64,000 bases of DNA from Sulfurospirillum sp. Its GTDB lineage: Bacteria; Campylobacterota; Campylobacteria; Campylobacterales; Arcobacteraceae. The DNA lies in assembly GCA_030491005.1 (NCBI GenBank), contig JAKZMJ010000023.1:17029-81028 (forward strand), in the 5' to 3' direction. This document shows positions 1,017 to 13,350 of this stretch, piece by piece. The position numbers were made by a program, and so were the translations under genes. A model generated the notes under the pieces. That model was not told the origin of the DNA. It did not search any database and saw only the letters and a list, made by a program, of their open reading frames with translations. Each line of letters begins with the position of its first letter. The stretch's first letter is position 1.

Positions 1017-2514
1017 ATGAGACCACTGCACAGTATAATCCAACAAAGCAACCTATTTAAAGGTATTAAAAGCACTTTTCAGCTAAAATAACTTCACTAA
1101 GAAGAGGTAAAAATGGCATTTAAAGATACAAACAATACATTTTCAGATATAGCAGTAACATCAAGATTAGAAAAAGTAAATTCATTTCTTAAAGAGTTGG
1201 ACTCTATTATAGACTTTGATAAATTACGACCAGTACTAAATAGAAATGGAATTGCTAAAAGTAATGTAGCTGGAGCACCTGCTTATGATAATGTACTGAT
1301 GTTTAGAGTACTGTTACTCCAGAAGTATTACAATCTCTTTGATCAAGCCACTCAAGATGCACTCTATGTAAACCTACTCTTTATTAGATTTGTAGGACTT
1401 AGCCTAGAGGATAGTGTACCAGACGAGAGTACAATCTGTAGATTTAGAAATTCCCTACTCAAGAACCGACTTTATGATAAATTATTTAACTCTGTAAATA
1501 AACAATTAGAGAGTAAAAACCTGATAGCGAAAAAAGGAAAATCTGTTTTAATTGATGCTACTCTCATTAGAAGTGATAACACGCAAATAAAAAATAAGAC
1601 TAAAGAAGTATACAAAGAAGACAAGAAAGGTATTCAAACAATAAATGCTGAGTTAAATATAAAACTTGAAGTAGAGCTTCAATCCAAAAAGCCTTCAAAA
1701 AAGAAGATTCAAAGAATTCTTAATGCTAAAGCCTATAACTCCAAGACATACAAGAATGCACAACTTGATACACTACAAGGTATTGATACTAAAGATATAA
1801 AGACTTCTCAAATTATTATAAAGAATGAAGAAGATAGCTATAATCATCAAGATAAAATAGATAGTGAAGTAAGGATAGGCTTTCACGCATCAAAGAAACA
1901 ATATACACAAGGCTATAAAGTACATATAGCAGTAGATGAGCAAAGTGGTATTATTATCTCCCAACAAACCACCTTCGCAAATACTCACGATATAGACACA
2001 GTAAAAACATTTGTAAAAGATATAGATGGAATGAAAGCTCTTTATGCTGATAAAGCATATAACTCAAAAGATATAGATACTTTTTTAGAAAGTGAAAATA
2101 TAGAAAATATGGTATGTCTCAAAGAGAAACAAACTCTAAGGCAAGAACAGATTAAGCAGCAAAGAAAAGATGAAAAACCTAAACATAAGATTAGAGCTAA
2201 AGTTGAACATAGGTTTGCAGATATAAAAACTCAGATGAAAGGCTCAACTACAAAATTTATAGGACTCGTTAGAAATAATATGAATTTTACCCTTACCTGC
2301 ATAGCTACTAATCTTAGATTATTAGGACAAAGACAAATAAGACAAATAAGACAAAGATTATAAGTAGTTAGATGAATAATATAGAGTTAAAGAGCTTTAA
2401 TAGACTAAAAAAGCTCCTAAAAATGACTGAATCTAATTTTATTGAAGATGGATTTTTTTAAATATTTGAAAAAATAGGATATATGAGTACTTTTTAATTA
2501 TGCAGTCGGCTCAT
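1017..2514 (+). mobile_element. IS5-family insertion sequence (~1.5 kb)
   Basis: Imperfect terminal inverted repeats: ATGAGACCACTGCA (1017-1030) versus the reverse complement of TGCAGTCGGCTCAT (2501-2514). Single transposase ORF. The two flanks are unrelated (transposase relic on the left, intI fragment on the right) and no target duplication is visible. Confidence 0.7.
1113..2363 (+). CDS. IS5-family DDE transposase
   Basis: N-terminal 'YDNVLMFRVLLLQKYYNL..ALYVNLLFIRFVGLSLEDSVPDESTICRFRN' (DUF772-type). C-terminal 'ADKAYNSKDI..KIRAKVEHRFADIKTQM', typical of IS4/IS5 DDE transposases. Confidence 0.85.
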   Translation: MAFKDTNNTFSDIAVTSRLEKVNSFLKELDSIIDFDKLRPVLNRNGIAKSNVAGAPAYDNVLMFRVLLLQKYYNLFDQATQDALYVNLLFIRFVGLSLEDSVPDESTICRFRNSLLKNRLYDKLFNSVNKQLESKNLIAKKGKSVLIDATLIRSDNTQIKNKTKEVYKEDKKGIQTINAELNIKLEVELQSKKPSKKKIQRILNAKAYNSKTYKNAQLDTLQGIDTKDIKTSQIIIKNEEDSYNHQDKIDSEVRIGFHASKKQYTQGYKVHIAVDEQSGIIISQQTTFANTHDIDTVKTFVKDIDGMKALYADKAYNSKDIDTFLESENIENMVCLKEKQTLRQEQIKQQRKDEKPKHKIRAKVEHRFADIKTQMKGSTTKFIGLVRNNMNFTLTCIATNLRLLGQRQIRQIRQRL

Positions 2515-4322: not shown

Positions 4323-4329
4323 TAAATAA

Positions 4330-5186
4330 ACACCCCTGTGATTGAATATCCACCTTTATGATATACTTCTAAATTAATACAAGTAAGGATATTAGATGCC
4401 AACAAGATTAAGAGTAGATTTAGCAGGATATCATCACATAATAAATCGAGGGGTAAACCGTTGCGATATTTTTAATAGTACTGATGACAAAGAGATGTTT
4501 TTACAAATTTTAAATAAGAGTGCTACTATGCATAAAGCTATTGTTCATGATTACTGCTTGATGGATAATCATTATCATATACTTTTAGAGACTAGTAAAG
4601 ATAATCTATCTTTGTTAATGAGAGTGATAAACGCTAACTATGCAAAATATTTTAATAAAAAATACAAAAGAAGTGGGCATCTCTGGCAAGATAGATATAA
4701 ATCAAAATATATCATATCAGATAATTATCTCTACACTCTTTTACGATACATAGAAAACAACCCACTTGAAGCATCTATGGCTACTAAAGTATGTGAATAT
4801 CCATATACACTTTCCTATGTATTGTTTAATGCTAAAACATACTATCCATGCTGTAATGACTCCATACTAATAAAAGAGTTTGATATAAAAACATTAAATG
4901 AGTTTTTAGGAGAACCAATAAGTGAAGATGAATTAGAGTATTTAAAAACTAAAGAAAAACAAAAAATATACAAAAAAGATAATAAAATAGAGATTAATCA
5001 ATGATAAATAAACAAAAGAATTTTTAGAATATTTTTATGAAACCGATACTAAGATAAAAAGAGATTTAGCTATACTTAGTGCTTATAAAGATGGATATAC
5101 ACAAGTCAAGATAGCAACACATCTGAAATTATCAACCTCAATGATTAGTAAGATTATCAAGAGTGGATATTCAATCACAGGGGTGT
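4330..5186 (+). mobile_element. Full-length Y1-transposase element with 24-bp terminal inverted repeats (parent of the MITEs)
   Basis: Same TIRs as the MITEs at 4330-4353 and 5163-5186. Carries the Y1 transposase ORF plus a downstream HTH-coding segment. Confidence 0.75.
4396..5004 (+). CDS. IS200-like / REP-associated (RAYT-like) Y1 tyrosine transposase domain protein
   Basis: 'YHHIINRGVNR', HUH motif in 'DYCLMDNHYHILLET', and 'SGHLWQDRYKSKYIISDNYLYTLLRYIENNPLEA' with the catalytic Tyr region. This is the Y1_Tnp (PF01797) pattern. Confidence 0.8.
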   Translation: MPTRLRVDLAGYHHIINRGVNRCDIFNSTDDKEMFLQILNKSATMHKAIVHDYCLMDNHYHILLETSKDNLSLLMRVINANYAKYFNKKYKRSGHLWQDRYKSKYIISDNYLYTLLRYIENNPLEASMATKVCEYPYTLSYVLFNAKTYYPCCNDSILIKEFDIKTLNEFLGEPISEDELEYLKTKEKQKIYKKDNKIEINQ

Positions 5187-5188
5187 AG
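5012..5188 (+). pseudogene. HTH (DnaA-C-terminal-like) segment detached from the Y1 transposase by stops and a frame change
   Basis: Frame open from 5012: 'TKEFLEYFYETDTKIKRDLAILSAYKDGYTQVKIATHLKLSTSMISKIIKSGYSITGV*'. No start codon. It is in a different frame from 4396-5004. The TAG lies at the element tip. Confidence 0.5.
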
Positions 5189-5977
5189 TTTTAAACTATT
5201 TAAGTTTTTTGGTGTATATCCATGATATTTTTTAAATATTTTAATCATATATGACTGATCATTAAATCCACATTCATATGCTATTTGTGCTAATGGTATT
5301 TTTTTTTCTATCATTTGCTTAGCCCAATTTACTCTTTTTATTTGAATATATTGACTAGGTGTAATACCCAAACAGTTTTTAAATATTTTTTGAAAATAAA
5401 ATTTTGATAAATTTATTTGTAAAGATATATCATCTAATGATAAATTATCTTTCATATCTATATTATTCATATATTCTAATGCTTTTTTTATATTTTTTTT
5501 TGGAGAAGTAATATTTGCTATGGTATAACAATTTTTTATTGTGTGATGCTCTAACATATACTCAAAGAACTCCATTACAGATAAATTAATTTCAAGTTGA
5601 TTTATAGCTTTATCAATAAAGGAGTAGTACATTGCATAGAATAGTTTAGTTGCTTTTTCATCATTAACTATTGTTTTAAACTCTATCTTGTTTTTTATAT
5701 TAGACTGTATCATATCTCCTAATATAGAATCAACAAAATCAATGCTAGGCATAATATTTATACAAGACCAAGTACTATCTAATGTTGTATGAAATTCATA
5801 AGGATTTACAACTTGTAGAATACCAGAAGACAGACAATATTTCTCATTTTCATTTTTGTAAAGTAATTTACCTTTATATATTAAGCTAAAATAATAATAA
5901 TCATGAAAATGCTTATTAAAATTAATATTTGTAAATTTATTGTTAATAAATGATAAATGTTCTGTATAGTTTAACAA
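5171..5977 (-). CDS. AraC-family transcriptional regulator
   Basis: N-terminal cupin-like half. C-terminal double HTH 'LSLDDISLQINLSKFYFQKIFKNCLGITPSQYIQIKRVNWAKQMIE..IAYECGFNDQSYMIKIFKKYHGYTP'. The last 5 codons and the stop lie inside the transposon TIR. Confidence 0.85.
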   Translation of the reverse strand: MLNYTEHLSFINNKFTNINFNKHFHDYYYFSLIYKGKLLYKNENEKYCLSSGILQVVNPYEFHTTLDSTWSCINIMPSIDFVDSILGDMIQSNIKNKIEFKTIVNDEKATKLFYAMYYSFIDKAINQLEINLSVMEFFEYMLEHHTIKNCYTIANITSPKKNIKKALEYMNNIDMKDNLSLDDISLQINLSKFYFQKIFKNCLGITPSQYIQIKRVNWAKQMIEKKIPLAQIAYECGFNDQSYMIKIFKKYHGYTPKNLNSLKLHPCD

Positions 5978-5994
5978 ACTAAATCCTTTACTTA

Positions 5995-6879
5995 TTATAA
6001 CTGATTATCTTCTTTTATTCCTAATAAAGTAGCAACAAATATCAATAATCCTCCAAAAATAATATTTAATGTTAAAGTTTCACCAATTAATATTATAGCA
6101 AATAGTACTCCAAATAATGGCTCAGTTCCCATTAAGAAACTTGCTCTAGTTGGTGTAGAATATTTTACTCCATAATTTTGAGCAAAAAATGCAAATATTG
6201 TACAAAATACTATAATAAATATCATAGGAATCCAAAATTCAAATGCAAGAGGTATTAAAATATCTGTATTTATTTGCAATAATAACAATAAACTAATAAA
6301 AAATATAATACCCATTTGTACTTGTGTTAGAATTAATGAATTAATACTAAATTTGTTAGTAAATACTTTTGTAGAAGTAAGCATAGTTGCTCGTAAAATA
6401 GCTGCAATTAATATCAAAATATCTCCAATATTAATAGTAAAAGTTTTATTATAAGTTAATATAAAAATGCCAAAGACAGACGTTATTGCTGCAATAATTA
6501 GCTTACTACTTGGTTTATTTTTTGTTCTAATTATATCAATAAATGGAGTGAAAATTATAGACAAAGATATTAAAATTGCTGCATTTGTAGCTGTTGTATA
6601 TTTAATTCCATACACTTCAGCTACAAAAATTCCACTTAATATTAATCCTAAAAAAGAGCCATATAGAACTACTATTTTGGGAGTATTAATTAAACTTTTA
6701 ATTGTAAAAGGTAGTAATATTAAAAATGTGATTCCAAATCTTATTACTAAAAATAATAATACTGGAGTATAGTCTAACAATCCTTTTGTTAAACTATAGC
6801 TTAATCCCCATATTACAGCAACACTTAATAGTAATATATCACTTAAATAGTTTTTATAAATTATACTAAAAATTTTCAA
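5995..6879 (-). CDS. EamA/DMT-family transporter
   Basis: About 10 TM helices in two EamA-like halves (294 aa). The start overlaps the upstream gene by 14 nt. Confidence 0.8.
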   Translation of the reverse strand: MKIFSIIYKNYLSDILLLSVAVIWGLSYSLTKGLLDYTPVLLFLVIRFGITFLILLPFTIKSLINTPKIVVLYGSFLGLILSGIFVAEVYGIKYTTATNAAILISLSIIFTPFIDIIRTKNKPSSKLIIAAITSVFGIFILTYNKTFTINIGDILILIAAILRATMLTSTKVFTNKFSINSLILTQVQMGIIFFISLLLLLQINTDILIPLAFEFWIPMIFIIVFCTIFAFFAQNYGVKYSTPTRASFLMGTEPLFGVLFAIILIGETLTLNIIFGGLLIFVATLLGIKEDNQL

Positions 6880-8638
6880 ACATTACTACTAATACATCTC
6901 TAAATGAGTCTATATTATTATTTATAGCGTTAATTTCAGATACACCATGTTTAATATAAGGATCATTTAGTAGGCATAAATCACATTTATCTTCCATATT
7001 AAAATTTGAAATAAAATTTTCATCTAAATCAGTTATCGTACTCATACCTCCAGATACATTATATTTATTAACCAATAATACTGATGTAAAGTCATCACCA
7101 TCTCTATGTAGTCCTTCAGGTGTTGGCTTACCCACATTTCCATTTGAAATAATTCTATTTGCAAATATTTTTATTTTCCAAGTTTTACACATTAAAGTAT
7201 TACTAAATAAGTTACCTAACCACTTTATATATTCATTAAAAAATAAAGTATTTGTCATTTCTTTTTCTAGTGGTTCATAGTATCTTTCAATATCACCATT
7301 TAATGAATTTATATGAGATGATTGCATGTATGGCACATGTGGCAATAATTCTAATTTTGATACCTCTATATTGAATTTGTATTCACTATAGCGTCTATAT
7401 CTATATAACCCACCATCTGCCATGTAAGTATCTTGCTTTAAATTATTCCAAAAACTACTAAATCTTTCCCAGTCAGCTAATTCAAAAAAGTCCCAATTTT
7501 TAATAAATTGTTTACCATTATTACACAAAAATTTATTTTTCTTTAAATTGTATATTATATTATCATTGAAATTATCATTTACTATAATATTTTTTTGAGA
7601 TTCTGATTTTGCTTTACTACTTTCCCAATTATCTCTATCTGTTAAATATAATGGATTATCTGCAACGATAGATATAGGAGCAAATTGTCCTTTCAATAAT
7701 TTATAAGTTACAGTTCCAGAAATTTTATGACTTAATTGCGATATAAAAGAATAAGCAGATTCTGCAACTTCATCATACCATCTGCCTTCAACTGCTTCTT
7801 GTGTCCATACTTGCCCCATGTATTGTTTTTTTATTAATAATGGTGTTGTTAGTATTGCCATTTCTAAATGTTTGTAAGCATTCATCAAGATAGATGCAGC
7901 TGGCATTTCTCTTACTTCTAAAACTTTTTCTTGATTGTATAAATGTTCTAAACCAATATATCTACCTGCACCAGACAATCCTACTCTAATGTTTAGTGTT
8001 TCAATTAACGATACAATATCAATTGTTTTATTATCAACAGAACTTGGTATTCCTTTTTCAAATGTAATTTTAATTTCATCTTGATAATTATTTTTTGGAA
8101 GAATAGACCATTTATACACATCTTCATCTAAATTAAAATTCTCTGGATTATCTAATGGACCAGACTCATACTCTCTACACCATAAATTAGCATCCCCACT
8201 TAATTTTCTTTCACTTAAAAAAGAAAATCCATGTTCTCCAAGAAATAAAGCTTTTTCTTTTCTTGATATTGCAGTATATTCATAAGGAGAACCATAATAG
8301 CCATTGAATTTTAATGATTTAATCGAACCATTTAATCGTCTTAAACTATTTTGGGATTGATTTGCTGTATGTATTACTATATCGCAATTATTTTCTATAG
8401 CTACTTCAAGAGCTTTTTTTGCAATAATAGGTCTACTTAAAGAAGAACTTACGGGAAACATTTCTAAATATTTTGCTTGAGCTTGTATTGCTGGGATAAC
8501 TGAATCTTGTACAAATTCTTCTTTCGCATCAATAATTTTTAATTCAATTGATAATTTATCTGTAATTATAGATAGTTGATCTTTATCAATTTCTTCTCCT
8601 AAATCTACTGCTACTGCTATAATCTTTTTAAAATTCAT
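6866..8638 (-). CDS. Fusion protein: argininosuccinate-synthase-like domain + PF10014 2OG-Fe(II) oxygenase domain
   Basis: N-terminal half is ArgG-like ('IIAVAVDLGEE', 'SSSLSRPIIAKKALEVA', 'LSGDANLWCREYESGPLDNPE'). C-terminal half is like L-isoleucine dioxygenase IDO ('YRYRRYSEY', 'PTPEGLHRDGDD', 'IKHGVSEI', 'FRDVLVVMF'). Confidence 0.75.
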   Translation of the reverse strand: MNFKKIIAVAVDLGEEIDKDQLSIITDKLSIELKIIDAKEEFVQDSVIPAIQAQAKYLEMFPVSSSLSRPIIAKKALEVAIENNCDIVIHTANQSQNSLRRLNGSIKSLKFNGYYGSPYEYTAISRKEKALFLGEHGFSFLSERKLSGDANLWCREYESGPLDNPENFNLDEDVYKWSILPKNNYQDEIKITFEKGIPSSVDNKTIDIVSLIETLNIRVGLSGAGRYIGLEHLYNQEKVLEVREMPAASILMNAYKHLEMAILTTPLLIKKQYMGQVWTQEAVEGRWYDEVAESAYSFISQLSHKISGTVTYKLLKGQFAPISIVADNPLYLTDRDNWESSKAKSESQKNIIVNDNFNDNIIYNLKKNKFLCNNGKQFIKNWDFFELADWERFSSFWNNLKQDTYMADGGLYRYRRYSEYKFNIEVSKLELLPHVPYMQSSHINSLNGDIERYYEPLEKEMTNTLFFNEYIKWLGNLFSNTLMCKTWKIKIFANRIISNGNVGKPTPEGLHRDGDDFTSVLLVNKYNVSGGMSTITDLDENFISNFNMEDKCDLCLLNDPYIKHGVSEINAINNNIDSFRDVLVVMFENF

Positions 8639-8639
8639 T

Positions 8640-8762
8640 TTACTTAATTTTACTAAATAAGTATGAACTATCTAATCCACCACTAAATAAAGTTACAATA
8701 CTTTTATTGCGATGCTCCAATTCTTGAATATCTTCAAAACTTCTTATTCTTTTACTATACAT
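8640..8762 (-). CDS. 40-codon ORF encoding the PP-loop (SGGxDS) that belongs to the ArgG-like enzyme (split or frameshifted N-terminus)
   Basis: 'MYSKRIRSFEDIQELEHRNKSIVTLFSGGLDSSYLFSKIK*'. Its stop TAA (8642-8640) lies 1 nt before the ATG at 8638 of the main ORF (TAAAATG). Confidence 0.55.
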   Translation of the reverse strand: MYSKRIRSFEDIQELEHRNKSIVTLFSGGLDSSYLFSKIK

Positions 8763-9104
8763 ATAATTGCCTTTTTCTTCTATATTACTAAATAAAAGGA
8801 ATTATAAATAGCATAATCTTGTCATTACTGCTATTTAAATAATTTTGTTAAAATTTATAAGTTTACTTGTTCTTTTTTAGACTATATACAAACTTTAAAA
8901 GTTTTTATAACTTATATATCATTTGGTTTATAAACTAAGAATAGTTTATAATGATAATATAATAAAACTCTAATATCGTTTATCAAAAGATATTTTGATA
9001 ACTTATTTAATGAATGCTTTTTATAAATAATATTTATTTTGTAAGTTTATTTAGAAATCTAGTTTTAATAGACTTGGATAACTTTTTTGTTGTACGAACT
9101 TTAG

Positions 9105-9693
9105 CTAACTATTTATTAAACATACATTATAGTCATTAAGCACTTAAATGTACTAATAACTAACATTCACATAATACTGATAAACACTACCTCAAATGAG
9201 GAAACATTACAAAATGACATCTTTTTTATGTATATTACTTTTTTTAGATAAGCTTTTAATGTATGTTTTATGTCTGTATTTCGGTGTAAATAGTACATTA
9301 TGTATGTTAAATAGGTATAAATCGTGATAAAACTGCATTTATTAAGTTTGAGAGGAGTAACAAATGGCTAAAAAATTATTGGAAGTGATGAGGGATAAAA
9401 TTAGATTTAAGCATTATAGTATCAAAACAGAAAGAGTTTATTTATATTGGGTTAAGAAATATATTTTGTTTCATAATAAAAAGCATCCTAAAAATATGGG
9501 CAAGATAGAGATAGAAGAATATTTGACAAATTTGGCTATTTATAATCAGGTAAGTCCTGCTACTTAGAATCAAGCTTTTAATGCTATATTATTTTTATAT
9601 GAACAAGTATTAAGTATCTCCCTTAAAAATGAGAATATTCAGGCTTTACGAGCAAAGCAAAAAAAGCATATTCCTGTTGTTTTATCTATGGAA
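9105..9693 (+). repeat. Segmental duplicate A (intI upstream region + first 330 bp of intI)
   Basis: Matches 12170-12729 almost base for base, apart from a ~30-bp indel near 9235-9265. Ends at a MITE junction. Confidence 0.85.
9364..9693 (+). pseudogene. intI: 5' third of the integron integrase gene (copy A), truncated by a MITE
   Basis: Same 67-aa ORF as 12400-12603 with the same TAG stop. Identity continues to 'CTATGGAA', then the MITE left end begins. Confidence 0.85.
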
Positions 9694-9715
9694 TAACACC
9701 CCTGTGATTGGAATA

Positions 9716-9910
9716 ACACCCCTGTGATTGAATATCCACCTTTATGATATACTTCGACTTTATGAAACCGATACTAAGATAAAAGAGATTTAGCTATACT
9801 TAGTGCTTATAAAGATGGATATACACAAGTCAAGATAGCAACACATCTGAAATTATCAACCTCAATGATTAGTAAGATTATCAAGAGTGGATATTCAATC
9901 ACAGGGGTGT
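9716..9910 (+). mobile_element. 195-bp MITE, copy 2
   Basis: Same TIRs and interior as 2664-2858. Preceded by a 20-bp tandem duplication 'GAATAACACCCCTGTGATTG' (9691-9710 / 9711-9730). Confidence 0.85.
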
Positions 9911-10030
9911 AGTTTTTAAAAAACGATATTTTTATTAATTATTTGAAGAAAAGATGACAATATGCAATCTTTTTGAAGTATTTTGATAAACTTTGATAGT
10001 ATAGTATAAGAAGGAAAATATTTTGGAATA

Positions 10031-10225
10031 ACACCCCTGTGATTGAATATCCACCTTTATGATATACTTCGACTTTATGAAACCGATACTAAGATAAAAG
10101 AGATTTAGCTATACTTAGTGCTTATAAAGATGGATATACACAAGTCAAGATAGCAACACATCTGAAATTATCAACCTCAATGATTAGTAAGATTATCAAG
10201 AGTGGATATTCAATCACAGGGGTGT
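10031..10225 (+). mobile_element. 195-bp MITE, copy 3
   Basis: Same TIRs and interior. Its right end 'AAGAGTGGATATTCAATCACAGGGGTGTAATTT' is tandemly duplicated (second copy 10231-10263). Confidence 0.85.
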
Positions 10226-10350
10226 AATTTAAGAGTGGATATTCAATCACAGGGGTGTAATTTGTGAAGTATTTTGATAAACTTTGATAGTATAGTATAA
10301 GAAGGAAAATATTTTGAATAATGATAAAAAACTTTTAGACTTACTAGTAG

Positions 10351-10483
10351 ATAAAAAGAGATTTAGCTATACTTAGTGCTTATACAGATGGATATACTCA
10401 AGTCAAGATAGCAACACATCTGAAATTATCAACCTCAATGATTAGTAAGATTATCAAGAGTGGATATTCAATCACAGGGGTGT
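10351..10483 (+). mobile_element. Right-end fragment of a variant of the same element
   Basis: HTH-coding segment plus right TIR with a few substitutions (..SAYTDGYTQ..). Preceded by a 51-bp sequence (10266-10316) that also occurs at 9975-10025. Confidence 0.7.
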
Positions 10484-10502
10484 AGTTTAAATGGTTTAAT
10501 TT

Positions 10503-11678
10503 TTAGAAACATCCATTATAATTATTTTTTGATATTGCTATACAATATTTTTGTAATTTATTATCATTAATCTGATAACAATTAGTTGATGATTTAGTTA
10601 TACCAATACAAAAATTTTGCATATTTTTATCTTTAATACTATAGCAATCAACTTGATTGACAGTTTTAGCAGTACAAACTTTTCGTAAATCACTATTTCT
10701 AATTTTATAACAATTAGTTGGAAATTTTGTTACTCCTAAGCAAAAGTTTTGCATATCTTTATCTTTAATATTCCAACAAGATGTTTCGGTATGCTTTGTT
10801 ATGGCAATACATGTATGCTTTAAATCTGATATACTATAACTCAATGAACTTACTTTAGGACGATTAGTCATTGTACTGATTGGTTTTAATAGTTTGGCAA
10901 TTTTATTAAAACCTTGTCTTTCTGCTGATAAATAAGCATTTTCAAAACCTTTTTGGTGCATATTTGGATTTGCTCCATTATCAAGCATAAACTTAACCAT
11001 ATTAAAATAGCCATTTGCGGAAGCATATATTAAAGGTGTTTGTTTATTTTTGGAATCCATCACATTAATATTATAATCATATGAAATATAATCTTTTATA
11101 CATTGTAAATTATTGTTAATTGCACAGTTAAAAATTTTATCTTTAATTTCTAAATAATATGTATAATTTTCTTCTGTTCGTAATTCTTCATAATAATTCT
11201 CAAATTGATGCTTTTTCATATAACTATATAATTTATTAGTATGCTTTTGTGAATAGTTTATTTTAAAACCATTTTTTCTTATGCTTATAGTATAAATCTT
11301 TGCCTTTGCAAATAATTTTCTTAACGGATATAATATTTCTTTATCATTAGGATTGTTGGAAATGTAACCATTATCATTAAATTGTCTATTTTTAATTTTT
11401 TCAAGAGTATTTTTGTCAAATATCATAATCATTTTTTCATATGAATTTGAATGTGATACAATAGCTAATCCAACATCTGCTATAAAATTATATTGTTTAA
11501 AAAGATAACTATATACATCAATTAGTATTTGATAAGCCTTTTCATCTTTATTATTTATATTTTTATTATACGAATAGTTTTTCCCACTTAATCCTAAAAA
11601 CATTAAATTAAATTGAGCATCTATGTCTTTAATTATTTTTAATTTTGCATTAGGATTATTAATGGTTATAAAATCCAT
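10503..11678 (-). CDS. Ankyrin-repeat protein with C-terminal Cys-rich 22-aa tandem repeats
   Basis: ANK motif 'NKQTPLIYASANGYFNMVKFMLDNGANPNMH'. The C-terminus has 4.5 units of C-x(9,10)-C-[YW]-x-I-x-[DN]-x2-[LM]-[QR]-[NK]-[FVY]. The repeat is also visible at DNA level. Confidence 0.7.
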   Translation of the reverse strand: MDFITINNPNAKLKIIKDIDAQFNLMFLGLSGKNYSYNKNINNKDEKAYQILIDVYSYLFKQYNFIADVGLAIVSHSNSYEKMIMIFDKNTLEKIKNRQFNDNGYISNNPNDKEILYPLRKLFAKAKIYTISIRKNGFKINYSQKHTNKLYSYMKKHQFENYYEELRTEENYTYYLEIKDKIFNCAINNNLQCIKDYISYDYNINVMDSKNKQTPLIYASANGYFNMVKFMLDNGANPNMHQKGFENAYLSAERQGFNKIAKLLKPISTMTNRPKVSSLSYSISDLKHTCIAITKHTETSCWNIKDKDMQNFCLGVTKFPTNCYKIRNSDLRKVCTAKTVNQVDCYSIKDKNMQNFCIGITKSSTNCYQINDNKLQKYCIAISKNNYNGCF

Positions 11679-11750
11679 TGTTGATATATTAACATTTTCT
11701 TTTGAAAAAGAAAAAATGTTACAAATAATAGAATTATTAATAATTTCATA

Positions 11751-12089
11751 TTATAGTTGTTTTTGTATATTCTTCATTAAATCAGCGAACCATAAATCTA
11801 AATTTGTTTCTTCACCTTTATTATTTAAAACTTTTAAATAATAATACATAACACTTCCTTTTCTAAAAGGAACCTCTTCTTTCTTTAATACTTTAAATGT
11901 TACACCTGTTGTTGAATTTATATAGTAACACTTATCTTTGTCTTTGTATTCTTTAGTAAATTCATTGGGTGAACTAACAGATACAACCAAAGCCAAAAAT
12001 GCATCACTTTTCTTATAACATCCAACAATAGTATCTCCATTATATTTAAATATTTGCCCAGCAAATACTAAACTACTTAATATAATCAT
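11751..12089 (-). CDS. Small hypothetical protein, probably exported
   Basis: Track ORF with hydrophobic N-terminus 'MIILSSLVFAGQ'. The in-frame upstream codons (..KKIVLG) lack a canonical start. No known motif. Confidence 0.45.
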   Translation of the reverse strand: MIILSSLVFAGQIFKYNGDTIVGCYKKSDAFLALVVSVSSPNEFTKEYKDKDKCYYINSTTGVTFKVLKKEEVPFRKGSVMYYYLKVLNNKGEETNLDLWFADLMKNIQKQL

Positions 12090-12169
12090 TCCTAAAACTA
12101 TTTTTTTGTAATAATAACCTCCATTATTAATTTATACATAAATAGTTCATTGAAATCGGATATTTTAAC

Positions 12170-12729
12170 CTAACTATTTATTAAACATACATTATAGTCA
12201 TTAAGCACTTAAATGTACTAATAACTAACATTCACATAATACTGATAAACACTACTTTAATGAGGAAACATTACAAAATGACATCTTTTTTGTATGTATG
12301 TTTTTTATGTCTGTATTTCGGTGTAAATAGTACATTATGTATGTTAAATAGGTAAAATTGTGATAAAACTGCATTTATTAAGTTTGAGAGGAGTAACAAA
12401 TGGCTAAAAAATTATTGGAAGTGATGAGGGATAAAATTAGATTTAAGCATTATAGTATCAAAACAGAAAGAGTTTATTTATATTGGGTTAAGAAGTATAT
12501 TTTGTTTCATAATAAAAAGCATCCTAAAAATATGGGCAAGATAGAGATAGAAGAATATTTGACAAATTTGGCTATTTATAATCAGGTAAGTCCTGCTACT
12601 TAGAATCAAGCTTTTAATGCTATATTATTTTTATATGAACAAGTATTAAGTATCTCCCTTAAAAATGAGAATATTCAGGCTTTACGAGCAAAGCAAAAAA
12701 AGCATATTCCTGTTGTTTTATCTATGGAA
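12170..12729 (+). repeat. Segmental duplicate B (intI upstream region + 5' intI)
   Basis: Counterpart of 9105-9693. Here the gene continues uninterrupted. Confidence 0.85.
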
Positions 12730-13350
12730 GAAGTGAAACAAGTTATTTTATGCACAAATGGTATCTATCAACTTATGTTAAAACTTATGTATGGTTGTGG
12801 TCTTCGAATGAGTGAGCTTTTAAGTCTTCGTATAAAAGATATAGATTTTTCTTATGAGAAAGTTTATATTTGGGATAGTAAATCACAAAAAGACAGAACA
12901 GTTCCCATACCTCTATTGATAAAAGAAGAACTTTTAATACAAGTTAAAAAAGTAAAAGAGATACATACAATAGATTTAAAAAATGGCTACGGAACAGTTT
13001 TTCTTCCTTTTGGATTTGATAAAAAATCACCTAAAACAAAATGACAATATCTTTTTCCTATGGATAAAGTTTCAAAAGACCCTAGAAGTAATATAATACG
13101 ACGACATCATACTTTAGATGTTACTTTTAGTAGAAACATTAAACGAGCAGTTCAAAAATGTGATATTGATAAAAAGATTTCTGCCCATATTTTTAGATAC
13201 TCTTATGCTACTCATTTACTACAAAATGGGACTGATATACGCTCTATTCAAGAGTTGTTGGGTCATAAATCTATAGAAACAACTATGATTTATACTCATG
13301 TTATAAAAGAGTTAAATCAAAATGAGATAAAATCACCTTTAGATTTTTAG
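12400..13350 (+). pseudogene. intI: Integron integrase, full length in one frame but with two premature stops
   Basis: Single frame of 316 codons. IntI hallmarks: 'YSIKTERVYLYWVKKYILFH', 'GCGLRMSELLSLRIKDID', the IntI-specific insert '..[30 protein letters not shown]', '[12 protein letters not shown]', '[16 protein letters not shown]'. TAG at 12601-12603 and TGA at 13042-13044. Confidence 0.85.

Follow-up and report, generated by a model that had tools for sequence, protein, structure and literature searches.

Results

The fusion gene of the window

We analysed an operon located on the minus strand of a 64,000-nucleotide (nt) stretch of Sulfurospirillum sp. DNA (contig JAKZMJ010000023.1), hereafter referred to as the window. 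The operon probably represents a small-molecule module, composed of a PP-loop enzyme of the ArtA family fused to a PF10014 dioxygenase, an EamA transporter and an AraC regulator, in which the PP-loop has been cut off by the insertion of a single T (+T). A four-part cassette is widespread in unfused form, and the operon is its fused counterpart; the cassette comprises a divergent LysR gene and the genes of an ArgG-like protein (argG_rel), a PF10014 dioxygenase and an EamA transporter. All coordinates given below are positions within the window, and residue numbers refer to the 590-amino acid (aa) open reading frame (ORF) of the fusion unless the 631-codon gene is named.

The 590-aa ORF (6866..8638, minus strand) exists as described in an earlier note on this DNA, and profile searches (Pfam, NCBIfam) resolved it into an ArgG-like body devoid of a PP-loop, a linker and a PF10014 dioxygenase domain. 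Matches to PF10014, Arginosuc_synth and Arginosuc_syn_C supported both domains proposed in the note, and every motif quoted in it is present (HTANQSQNSLRRLN, YRYRRYSEY, LHRDGDD, KHGVSEI and FRDVLVVMF). The claim that the ORF follows ArgG along its whole length was not borne out: the match sets in only at profile position 26 (Pfam) or 38 (NCBIfam), and the PP-loop is encoded in a separate ORF. The frameshift that separates the two had been missed.

The true N-terminus of the fusion gene is a 40-aa ORF (MYSKRIRSFEDIQELEHRNKSIVTLFSGGLDSSYLFSKIK, followed by a stop codon; 8640..8762, minus strand), which is preceded by a Shine-Dalgarno-like sequence (AAAAAGG) and lies in another frame than the 590-aa ORF. 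It contains the PP-loop ATP-pyrophosphatase motif SGGLDS (8667..8684, minus strand), and its residues 1–35 are identical to those of an intact allele, P0242, a 631-aa member of the 90%-identity cluster of the window protein. P0242 is identical to the window sequence minus one T: the TT of the intact allele is a TTT run in the window (8655..8657, minus strand), and this one-base insertion shifts the frame at codon 36, so that the PP-loop is cut off from the rest of the enzyme. The 40-aa ORF ends in a TAA codon (8642-8640) located 1 nt before the ATG of the 590-aa ORF. A full-length match to the NCBIfam profile NF038212 in a single frame, including SGGxDS, was obtained for the intact allele (profile positions 1–380, 561 bits) and not for the window ORF.

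Gene order at the locus carrying P0242 (L090) matches that of the window (amtB, P-II, integrase fragments, ankyrin gene, fusion gene, EamA, AraC and Y1 transposase), the two being 99.67% identical over 14.4 kb. The whole shared stretch contains 32 substitutions and 6 indels, and TTT versus TT at 8655-8657 is the sole difference across the 3.8-kb operon. All six indels lie inside an island (5003-12353); besides +T, they comprise changes of +10, +4, +2, +2 and −1 nt in the window relative to L090, one of which shortens the neighbouring transposase from 260 to 202 aa. Since these other island indels also differ from L090, we think that +T is real and very recent, and that it is probably not a sequencing error.

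In this strain, the nitrile-forming half of the window gene is most likely dead; the most that can be expected is a shortened protein that is started anew from the ATG 1 nt past the stop and retains the dioxygenase domain. The gene is best regarded as a very recent pseudogene or as the source of a truncated product. Programmed frameshifting was considered and rejected, because nothing in the 5' region pointed to an RNA structure (z = −0.01) and the copies carry lesions of different kinds (see below). Reconstitution of a split enzyme by the 40-aa peptide was likewise discarded, since the lesions of the related loci L001, L002, L003 and L007 would give no complementary fragments. A promoter and terminator scan was uninformative in this AT-rich host DNA (27% GC), returning 40 sites against 40 expected.

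The ArgG-like half

The argG_rel body, which is nitrile-synthetase-like (7610..8635, minus strand; residues 2–343), covers positions 38–380 of NF038212 (argG_rel, argininosuccinate synthase-related protein), a profile matched by the 590-aa ORF with 501.5 bits against a cutoff of 425. The Pfam domains Arginosuc_synth (aa 5–133, 6.9e-21) and Arginosuc_syn_C (aa 147–341, 2.4e-28) were also recognised, and they are what would speak for a genuine argininosuccinate synthase of arginine biosynthesis bearing an accessory domain. The probability of this reading is practically nil, and it is refuted by the profile scores and by the structure match to ArtA. The ORF reaches only 184.9–192.9 bits against the ArgG equivalogs (TIGR00032, NF001770 and NF010392; cutoffs 268–512), the intact allele (204–213 bits) is likewise under cutoff, and the best score goes to the exception model NF038212; moreover, the protein has another sequence in place of the catalytic motif, and the nearest structure is ArtA, not an ArgG. 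In the motif alignment, the family signature HTANQSQNSLRRLN (8330..8371, minus strand) stands in place of ArgG's HGATGKGNDQVRFE, the ArgG aspartate/ATP motif G-x-T-G-K-G-N-D-Q-x-R-F-E being absent. The signature (HTANxSQNSLRRLN) is kept in ArtA and in 98 of the 108 stand-alone argG_rel relatives, 106 of which carry the SGGLDS PP-loop, and the aspartate-binding residues are replaced throughout the family. The view that citrulline/aspartate chemistry is unlikely was therefore upheld, and the window gene should not be annotated as an argininosuccinate synthase.

The nearest solved structure is PDB 9LEH/9LEI, deposited as the nitrile synthetase ArtA (371 bits, E 1e-109; fold match with 45% identity, template modelling (TM) score of 0.84 and root mean square deviation (rmsd) of 1.9 Å), and true ArgGs rank behind it (24–29% identity). 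Because this closest solved relative is a nitrile synthetase, the ArgG-like half is, by homology, more likely to be a nitrile synthetase than a ligase. The adenylating ligase proposed in the earlier note is disfavoured for the same reason, ArtA being the only solved member of the family, and also by the nitrile hydratase and amidase genes found beside distant members. In one such locus (L080, 438-3481), nitrile hydratase alpha and beta genes lie directly downstream of a distant argG_rel, together with an aminotransferase gene; in another (L061, 3848-8852), a distant argG_rel is placed beside genes for an amidase, a thioesterase and an ABC exporter. Neither contains a dioxygenase gene. These neighbours provide independent contextual support for nitrile/amide chemistry in argG_rel. 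To our knowledge, ArgG-type ATP-dependent nitrile synthetases were described only in 2025–26. According to a preprint (PMC13060819), such enzymes adenylate a carboxylate and then its amide, and elimination of AMP yields the nitrile; the structure of ArtA (Zeng et al., ACS Catal 2025) is known to us as reference 13 of that preprint. Weak matches to PF06508 were detected in many argG_rel relatives.

The metagenome contigs closest to ArtA (L066, L077 and L087; 66–68% identity) have about 50% GC and very sparse ORFs nearby, and may be eukaryotic (fungal) DNA. Since these contigs look possibly fungal, ArtA itself may be the product of a bacterial gene taken up by a fungus.

The dioxygenase half and the interdomain linker

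The PF10014 Fe(II)/2-oxoglutarate dioxygenase domain (6884..7456, minus strand; residues 395–585) was recognised with 179.8 bits (6.3e-53; cutoff 23.1). Alignment placed its catalytic residues, on the minus strand, at H511 and D513 (7100-7108), H564 (6947-6949) and R580 (6899-6901). The four columns of this H-x-D...H...R site are 100% conserved among 120 relatives and all are present in the window protein, in agreement with the assignment of the domain to the free-amino-acid dioxygenase type. Its fold neighbours are 3PL0, 8W8H, HrmJ, IDO, BelL and TqaL. The fold relatives within PF10014 all act on free amino acids, by hydroxylation, cyclopropanation or aziridination. The IDO/HilB equivalog NF042428 gave only 18.5 bits (cutoff 350), and identity to IDO in the fold alignment was 14–16%.

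The two domains are joined by a weakly constrained linker (7457..7609, minus strand; residues 344–394), for which the ratio of non-synonymous to synonymous substitution rates (dN/dS) was 0.15–1.3. In the AlphaFold2 model of the 590-aa ORF (mean predicted local distance difference test (pLDDT) of 91.4; predicted TM score (pTM) of 0.61), pLDDT falls below 50 at linker residues 349–353. This low-confidence segment coincides with a recombination breakpoint. Nucleotide identity between the window and L001 is 88–100% up to about codon 390 of 631 and 62–84% beyond it, while protein identity is 94.8% for the ArgG-like half, 58.7% for the dioxygenase and 70.5% for EamA; the corresponding values for L006 are 72.6%, 75% and 78.5%. 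The window gene is a mosaic, recombined at the interdomain linker. Because identity drops past the breakpoint in both segments, the dioxygenase and the exporter appear to have been exchanged as a unit.

Conservation of the cassette and independent fusions

The cassette was surveyed in 80 metagenome loci encoding argG_rel relatives, and adjacency was counted for relatives with at least 47% identity to the window and at least 900 nt on both flanks. Among these close relatives, a PF10014 gene was adjacent in 33 of 33 and an EamA gene in 30 of 33; of 53 cassette loci, 35 had a divergent LysR gene, and further enzymes did not recur. The pathway therefore comprises a pair of enzymes that share a metabolite. 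The Vibrio vulnificus genes are arranged as LysR, argG_rel (404 aa), PF10014 (250 aa) and EamA, and the cassette occurs in Vibrio, Shewanella, Halomonas, rhizobia and further bacteria. These unfused cassettes show the two enzymes as separate neighbours, which confirms that the window gene joins proteins that are normally separate. The idea of a compact pathway with an exporter also fits, both with the conserved cassette and with the logic of the IDO/Hil operons (PMC3684760).

Fusion is rare. A fused gene was present in only 1 of the 80 surveyed metagenome loci, a scan of a genome collection yielded one locus (L006), and among the 1.84 billion proteins of a representative library only P0004, P0005 and P0007 cover both halves of the query in one stretch. 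The nearest ArgG-like relative of each fusion clade is a stand-alone gene: (i) P0010 for the window clade (59% identity), (ii) P0103 for the P0006/P0007 clade (58%), (iii) P0096 for the P0009 clade (82%), (iv) P0081 for the P0008 clade (64%), and (v) ArtA itself for the P0011/P0012 clade of Mesorhizobium (63%), beside which ArtA nests in the family tree. For this reason the fusion is judged, from these sequence relationships, to have arisen independently at least 4–5 times. Repeated fusion of this kind is classic Rosetta-stone evidence that both enzymes share one pathway.

The Mesorhizobium fusion cluster has many fragment-length members. Other architectures were seen among the matches in the representative library (P0286, P0308, P0382, P0390 and P0321), namely argG_rel with an unassigned N-terminal (~220–240 aa) or C-terminal (~400 aa) extension, a PF10014–NUDIX fusion, and two PF10014 domains in tandem.

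The suggestion that this is not a described system needs revision. The ArgG-like half belongs to a curated family (NF038212) with a published structure. In our literature search, no openly accessible paper on the ArgG_rel/PF10014 pairing was found, ArtA was met as a citation only, and a survey paper on PF10014 made no mention of the fusion.

Lesions in the fused copies

Most of the AT-rich fused copies carry a recent lesion that breaks the gene, and the lesion differs from copy to copy. In addition to +T at codon 36 in the window, we identified a 14-nt deletion between ATCGTAA direct repeats at about codon 20 (L001), a GGA->TGA change inside SGGLDS at codon 28 (L002), a poly-G tract (G7) at about codon 55 (L003), the same tract as G6 plus a nonsense codon at about codon 55 (L011, of the L003 lineage), A6->A5 at about codon 47 (L007/L008, two samples) and A7->A8 at about codon 117 (L009), as well as a 5' truncation from the start plus internal lesions (L006) and many changes throughout the gene (L091). 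Repair of one lesion each in the window, L001, L002, L003 and L007 restores a single ORF of 631–648 codons. These five single-lesion alleles were all hit in the first 55 of 631 codons (about 20, 28, 36, 47 and 55); under a uniform distribution the probability of such clustering is (55/631)^5 = about 5e-6, with the 55-codon threshold set after the data had been seen. A search with the dioxygenase half alone, performed as a check on ascertainment, gave one further close fragment, that of L006 itself, and no hidden copies broken in mid-gene.

Within the clade, dN/dS was 0.04–0.07 for the N-terminal 41 codons, 0.085–0.15 for the ArgG-like body and 0.09–0.32 for the dioxygenase. The lesions are therefore recent. 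Intact alleles persist in L090, P0006 and L010 (the last intact over the covered part, from about codon 17). L010 is 100% identical to L001 over 3,240 nt and keeps the 14 nt deleted in L001, which suggests that the two alleles coexist in the sampled population. The two sequences come from different archives, and the L010 contig ends exactly at the site of the 14-nt deletion. Recoding of TGA in L002 was considered and set aside, as every other copy has a different lesion. L003 is a relative with Campylobacterota-like features, e.g. a fused IspDF gene. The early-lesion pattern may stem from selection for losing the PP-loop, with reinitiation at the conserved Met, from selection for polar knock-outs that silence a costly operon early, or from switching that can in part be reversed.

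Positions 6001-8767 of L091 (ENA ERZ26052494, contig 9842) are syntenic with positions 5995-8762 of the window. Relative to L090, its flanking genes differ by 0–0.4%, EamA carries 8 substitutions, and the fusion gene has 39 substitutions and 2 indels (2.1%). On the coding strand, 22 of the 39 substitutions are A or T to C, often clustered, and many of the 39 visibly alter the amino acid (including SGGLDS->NGGLDS). The loss of the stop codon joins the back half of the fusion gene to EamA, and the joint product has 660 aa. Ordinary drift does not produce changes so localised and so biased towards C in an AT-rich genome; they could stem from import of a decayed allele, from hypermutation or from an artefact of assembly.

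The remaining genes of the operon and its mobile flanks

The fusion ORF is overlapped by 14 nt by the gene of an EamA/DMT-family transporter, a presumed exporter of 294 aa (5995..6879, minus strand; PF00892, two matched repeats, 2.9e-33). An AraC-family regulator of 268 aa is encoded 17 nt downstream of EamA (5171..5977, minus strand); it combines a ligand-binding domain with two helix-turn-helix motifs (PF02311, PF12833 and two stretches of PF00165). The overlap, the order and the common minus strand were thus all confirmed. L090 and L091, the syntenic loci, have the AraC gene as well; most other cassettes carry the divergent LysR gene instead.

The flanks are rich in mobile elements, which agrees with the placement of the operon in a mobile island. 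The left boundary (4323..5193, plus strand) is formed by a gene resembling those of transposases associated with repetitive extragenic palindromes (REPs), i.e. REP-associated tyrosine transposases (RAYTs; 4396..5004), with 31-nt inverted repeats at 4323-4353 and 5163-5193; an insertion of 10 nt near position 5003 has shortened its product to 202 aa. About five elements of approximately 220 nt (2657-2876, 4985-5204, 9709-9928, 10024-10243 and 10282-10501) end in 28-nt inverted repeats (ACACCCCTGTGATTGAATATCCAC...), and the same repeats bracket the transposase-like gene. Together, the repeats and the transposase look like a RAYT/REPIN-like or miniature inverted-repeat transposable element (MITE) system, inserted into and around an integrase gene.

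On the right, directly upstream of the operon and divergent from it, the boundary is a pseudogene, the 5' fragment of a gene resembling those of integron integrases (9364..9567, plus strand). The 5' part of this gene and its upstream region occur in 2–3 copies (9100-9728, 12165-12764 and 2513-2696; 96–99% identical), and the fullest copy is split into at least 3 ORFs (12724..13350, including 12724..13044 and 13060..13350). The best NCBIfam match of the C-terminal integrase fragment is the integron integrase TIGR02249. In its geometry, the operon resembles a first cassette adjoining attI; a stringent attC scan for paired R''/R' arms, which may miss real sites, detected none in the window, L001, L006 or L090, and none in shuffled sequence.

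At the left edge of the island, the window contains another mobile element, a DDE transposase of the insertion sequence type (DUF772 and DDE_Tnp_1; 1113..2363, plus strand). A 391-aa ankyrin-repeat protein (10503..11678, minus strand) has a C-terminal region in which Cys-containing repeats recur every 66 nt (10541-10779). An indel of 2 nt near position 11711 may explain why its N-terminus differs from that of the 414-aa version in L090.

Discussion

According to the mechanism that we propose, the PP-loop domain would adenylate the terminal carboxamide or carboxylate of a common free amino acid, and elimination of AMP would then give a nitrile. The PF10014 domain would oxidise the same molecule, before or after the nitrile step, EamA would export the product, probably an antimetabolite or a signal, and AraC (here) or LysR (elsewhere) would control expression. 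One may go further and suppose that the cassette makes an undescribed, exported, nitrile-bearing oxidised amino acid, that its synthesis is costly or self-toxic enough for the cassette to have suffered repeated PP-loop or other early knock-outs in AT-rich marine hosts, and that dioxygenase-plus-exporter modules are swapped by recombination at the linker; the oxidised amino acid would, speculatively, be hydroxylated or cyclised in an HrmJ-like manner and act as an antimetabolite or a signal. This extended version is tentative, and we would not expect it to be correct in full.

Several points weigh against the module as we propose it. The inserted T could still be an assembly error, and with only 45% identity to ArtA the outcome of the reaction could differ. 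The role of the dioxygenase could be hydroxylation, cyclopropanation (as in HrmJ and BelL) or aziridination (as in TqaL). Finally, AlphaFold2 leaves the relative orientation of the two domains unpredicted (pTM 0.61, disordered linker).

If the extra T had arisen in a short homopolymer through faulty assembly or sequencing, the gene would be intact and functional. A single base in a T run is indeed the only change relative to L090 over the operon, and purifying selection on the N-terminal 41 codons is strong; we nevertheless consider such an error unlikely, because the five other island-confined indels include events of +10, +4 and +2 nt, which are not homopolymer errors, because one of the five truncates the neighbouring transposase, and because independent lesions are the rule in related copies. 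It seems doubtful, too, that loss of the PP-loop has been selected, with termination-reinitiation (TAA-A-ATG) yielding a 590-aa product that acts as a dioxygenase only and uses the ArgG-like body as a scaffold. Such a scenario would account for the five alleles with exactly one lesion within the first 55 codons and the remaining ~575 codons open, for the Met (MNFKK/MNFKE/MEFRK) directly after the PP-loop helix in the window clade, for the spacing of 1 nt between stop and ATG in the window, and for the intact dioxygenase site. However, the PP-loop of N-type ATP pyrophosphatases follows the first, central strand of a Rossmann-like sheet, and the truncated domain may not fold; restarts in L003 and L007 would remove even more of it, and L006, L011 and L091 also have downstream lesions. 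Moreover, the 55-codon threshold was picked afterwards, and early lesions are equally expected from polar silencing of a costly operon.

The chemistry of the ArgG-like half could also be that of a ligase coupling an adenylated ureido, amide or carboxyl group to an amine, the product being a hydroxylated amino acid conjugated through an amidine or amide. ArgG itself works as a ligase of this kind, identity to ArtA is just 45%, and several motifs that we take to be the citrulline-binding motifs of ArgG are retained (the R in LRRLN, S-x-D-x-N-L-W and E-V-R-E-x-P). We regard a ligase as rather improbable, given that the residues for the second substrate, aspartate, are replaced family-wide, that the sole characterised member is named a nitrile synthetase, and that relatives have nitrile hydratase or amidase neighbours. 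Switching of a phase-variable contingency locus by slippage near the 5' end is very unlikely. It would be in keeping with the differing length of the poly-G tract in L003 and L011 (G7 versus G6, with G5 or G8 in frame), with the A-run slips of L007 and L009, and with the coexistence of intact and broken alleles in two lineages (window/L090 and L001/L010). A 5' simple-sequence tract varying between isolates was, however, found only as the poly-G of the L003/L011 lineage and not in the window, where the lesion lies in a run of only 2–3 T. No repeat tract is shared between the copies, the lesions of L001 (14-nt deletion), L002 (GGA->TGA) and L006 (5' truncation) are not readily reversible, and the 5' region shows no unusual RNA structure.

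Whichever fate has befallen the window copy, argG_rel is almost always paired with a free-amino-acid Fe/2-oxoglutarate oxygenase and an exporter, which points to a widespread two-enzyme route to a nitrile-type amino acid. A modified amino acid is probably what this common, functionally unstudied three-gene module synthesises and exports, and two or three genes suffice for a direct test of the route. Function and fitness cost can be compared naturally in the fusion proteins and in the pairs of intact and broken alleles. It is worth mentioning that published work on ArtA may already cover part of this lead.

Comparison with known systems

The closest known counterpart of the ArgG-like half is ArtA, which belongs to the same NF038212-type family (45–46% identity over about 380 residues, TM 0.84, rmsd 1.9 Å) and shares the SGGLDS PP-loop and the HTANxSQNSLRRLN signature. 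Whereas the window protein is joined to a dioxygenase and lacks its PP-loop owing to the frameshift, ArtA stands alone as a chain of 435 aa; the nearest relatives of ArtA in the analysed set are the Mesorhizobium ArgG_rel::PF10014 fusions (63%). With ArgG (PDB 1KH1, 2NZ2 and 4U7J) the window protein has in common the two-domain fold and membership of the PP-loop superfamily, at 24–29% identity. In contrast to ArgG, it has HGATGKGNDQVRFE replaced and scores under all ArgG equivalog cutoffs, and its cassette neighbours are a dioxygenase and an exporter rather than arginine-biosynthesis genes. The preQ0-type nitrile synthetases QueC and ToyM, which convert a carboxylate to a nitrile via the amide (PMC13060819), are PP-loop ATPases like argG_rel, but they represent a different family and fold elaboration, and their substrate is a 7-deazapurine, not an amino acid.

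The dioxygenase half has the same fold as the nitrocyclopropane-forming HrmJ and BelL and the aziridine-forming TqaL (PDB 9DQ0, 9DQP, 8JMS and 7EEH), with TM scores of 0.77–0.86 normalised to the target. HrmJ and BelL act on a free amino acid bearing an electron-withdrawing terminal nitro group, and an analogy between that group and the nitrile would be speculation. Identity is only 20–25%, and any cyclisation by the cassette enzyme would be hypothetical.

As a whole, the cassette resembles the IDO and Hil operons. The IDO operon of Bacillus thuringiensis encodes a hydroxylase, a reductase and an RhtA exporter, the exported antimetabolite being AMKP, and the Hil operons of Pantoea and Pseudomonas add a LysR regulator (PMC3684760). 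These operons and the cassette share a PF10014 free-amino-acid dioxygenase, one partner enzyme, an RhtA/EamA-type exporter and, often, LysR. They differ in the partner, which is a reductase, a second dioxygenase or an ATP-grasp ligase in the former and an ArtA-like PP-loop enzyme in the latter. In the window, moreover, the dioxygenase is not an IDO/HilB equivalog and the two enzymes are fused. By analogy, then, the layout of the cassette has a precedent in known PF10014 operons with exported amino-acid antimetabolites.

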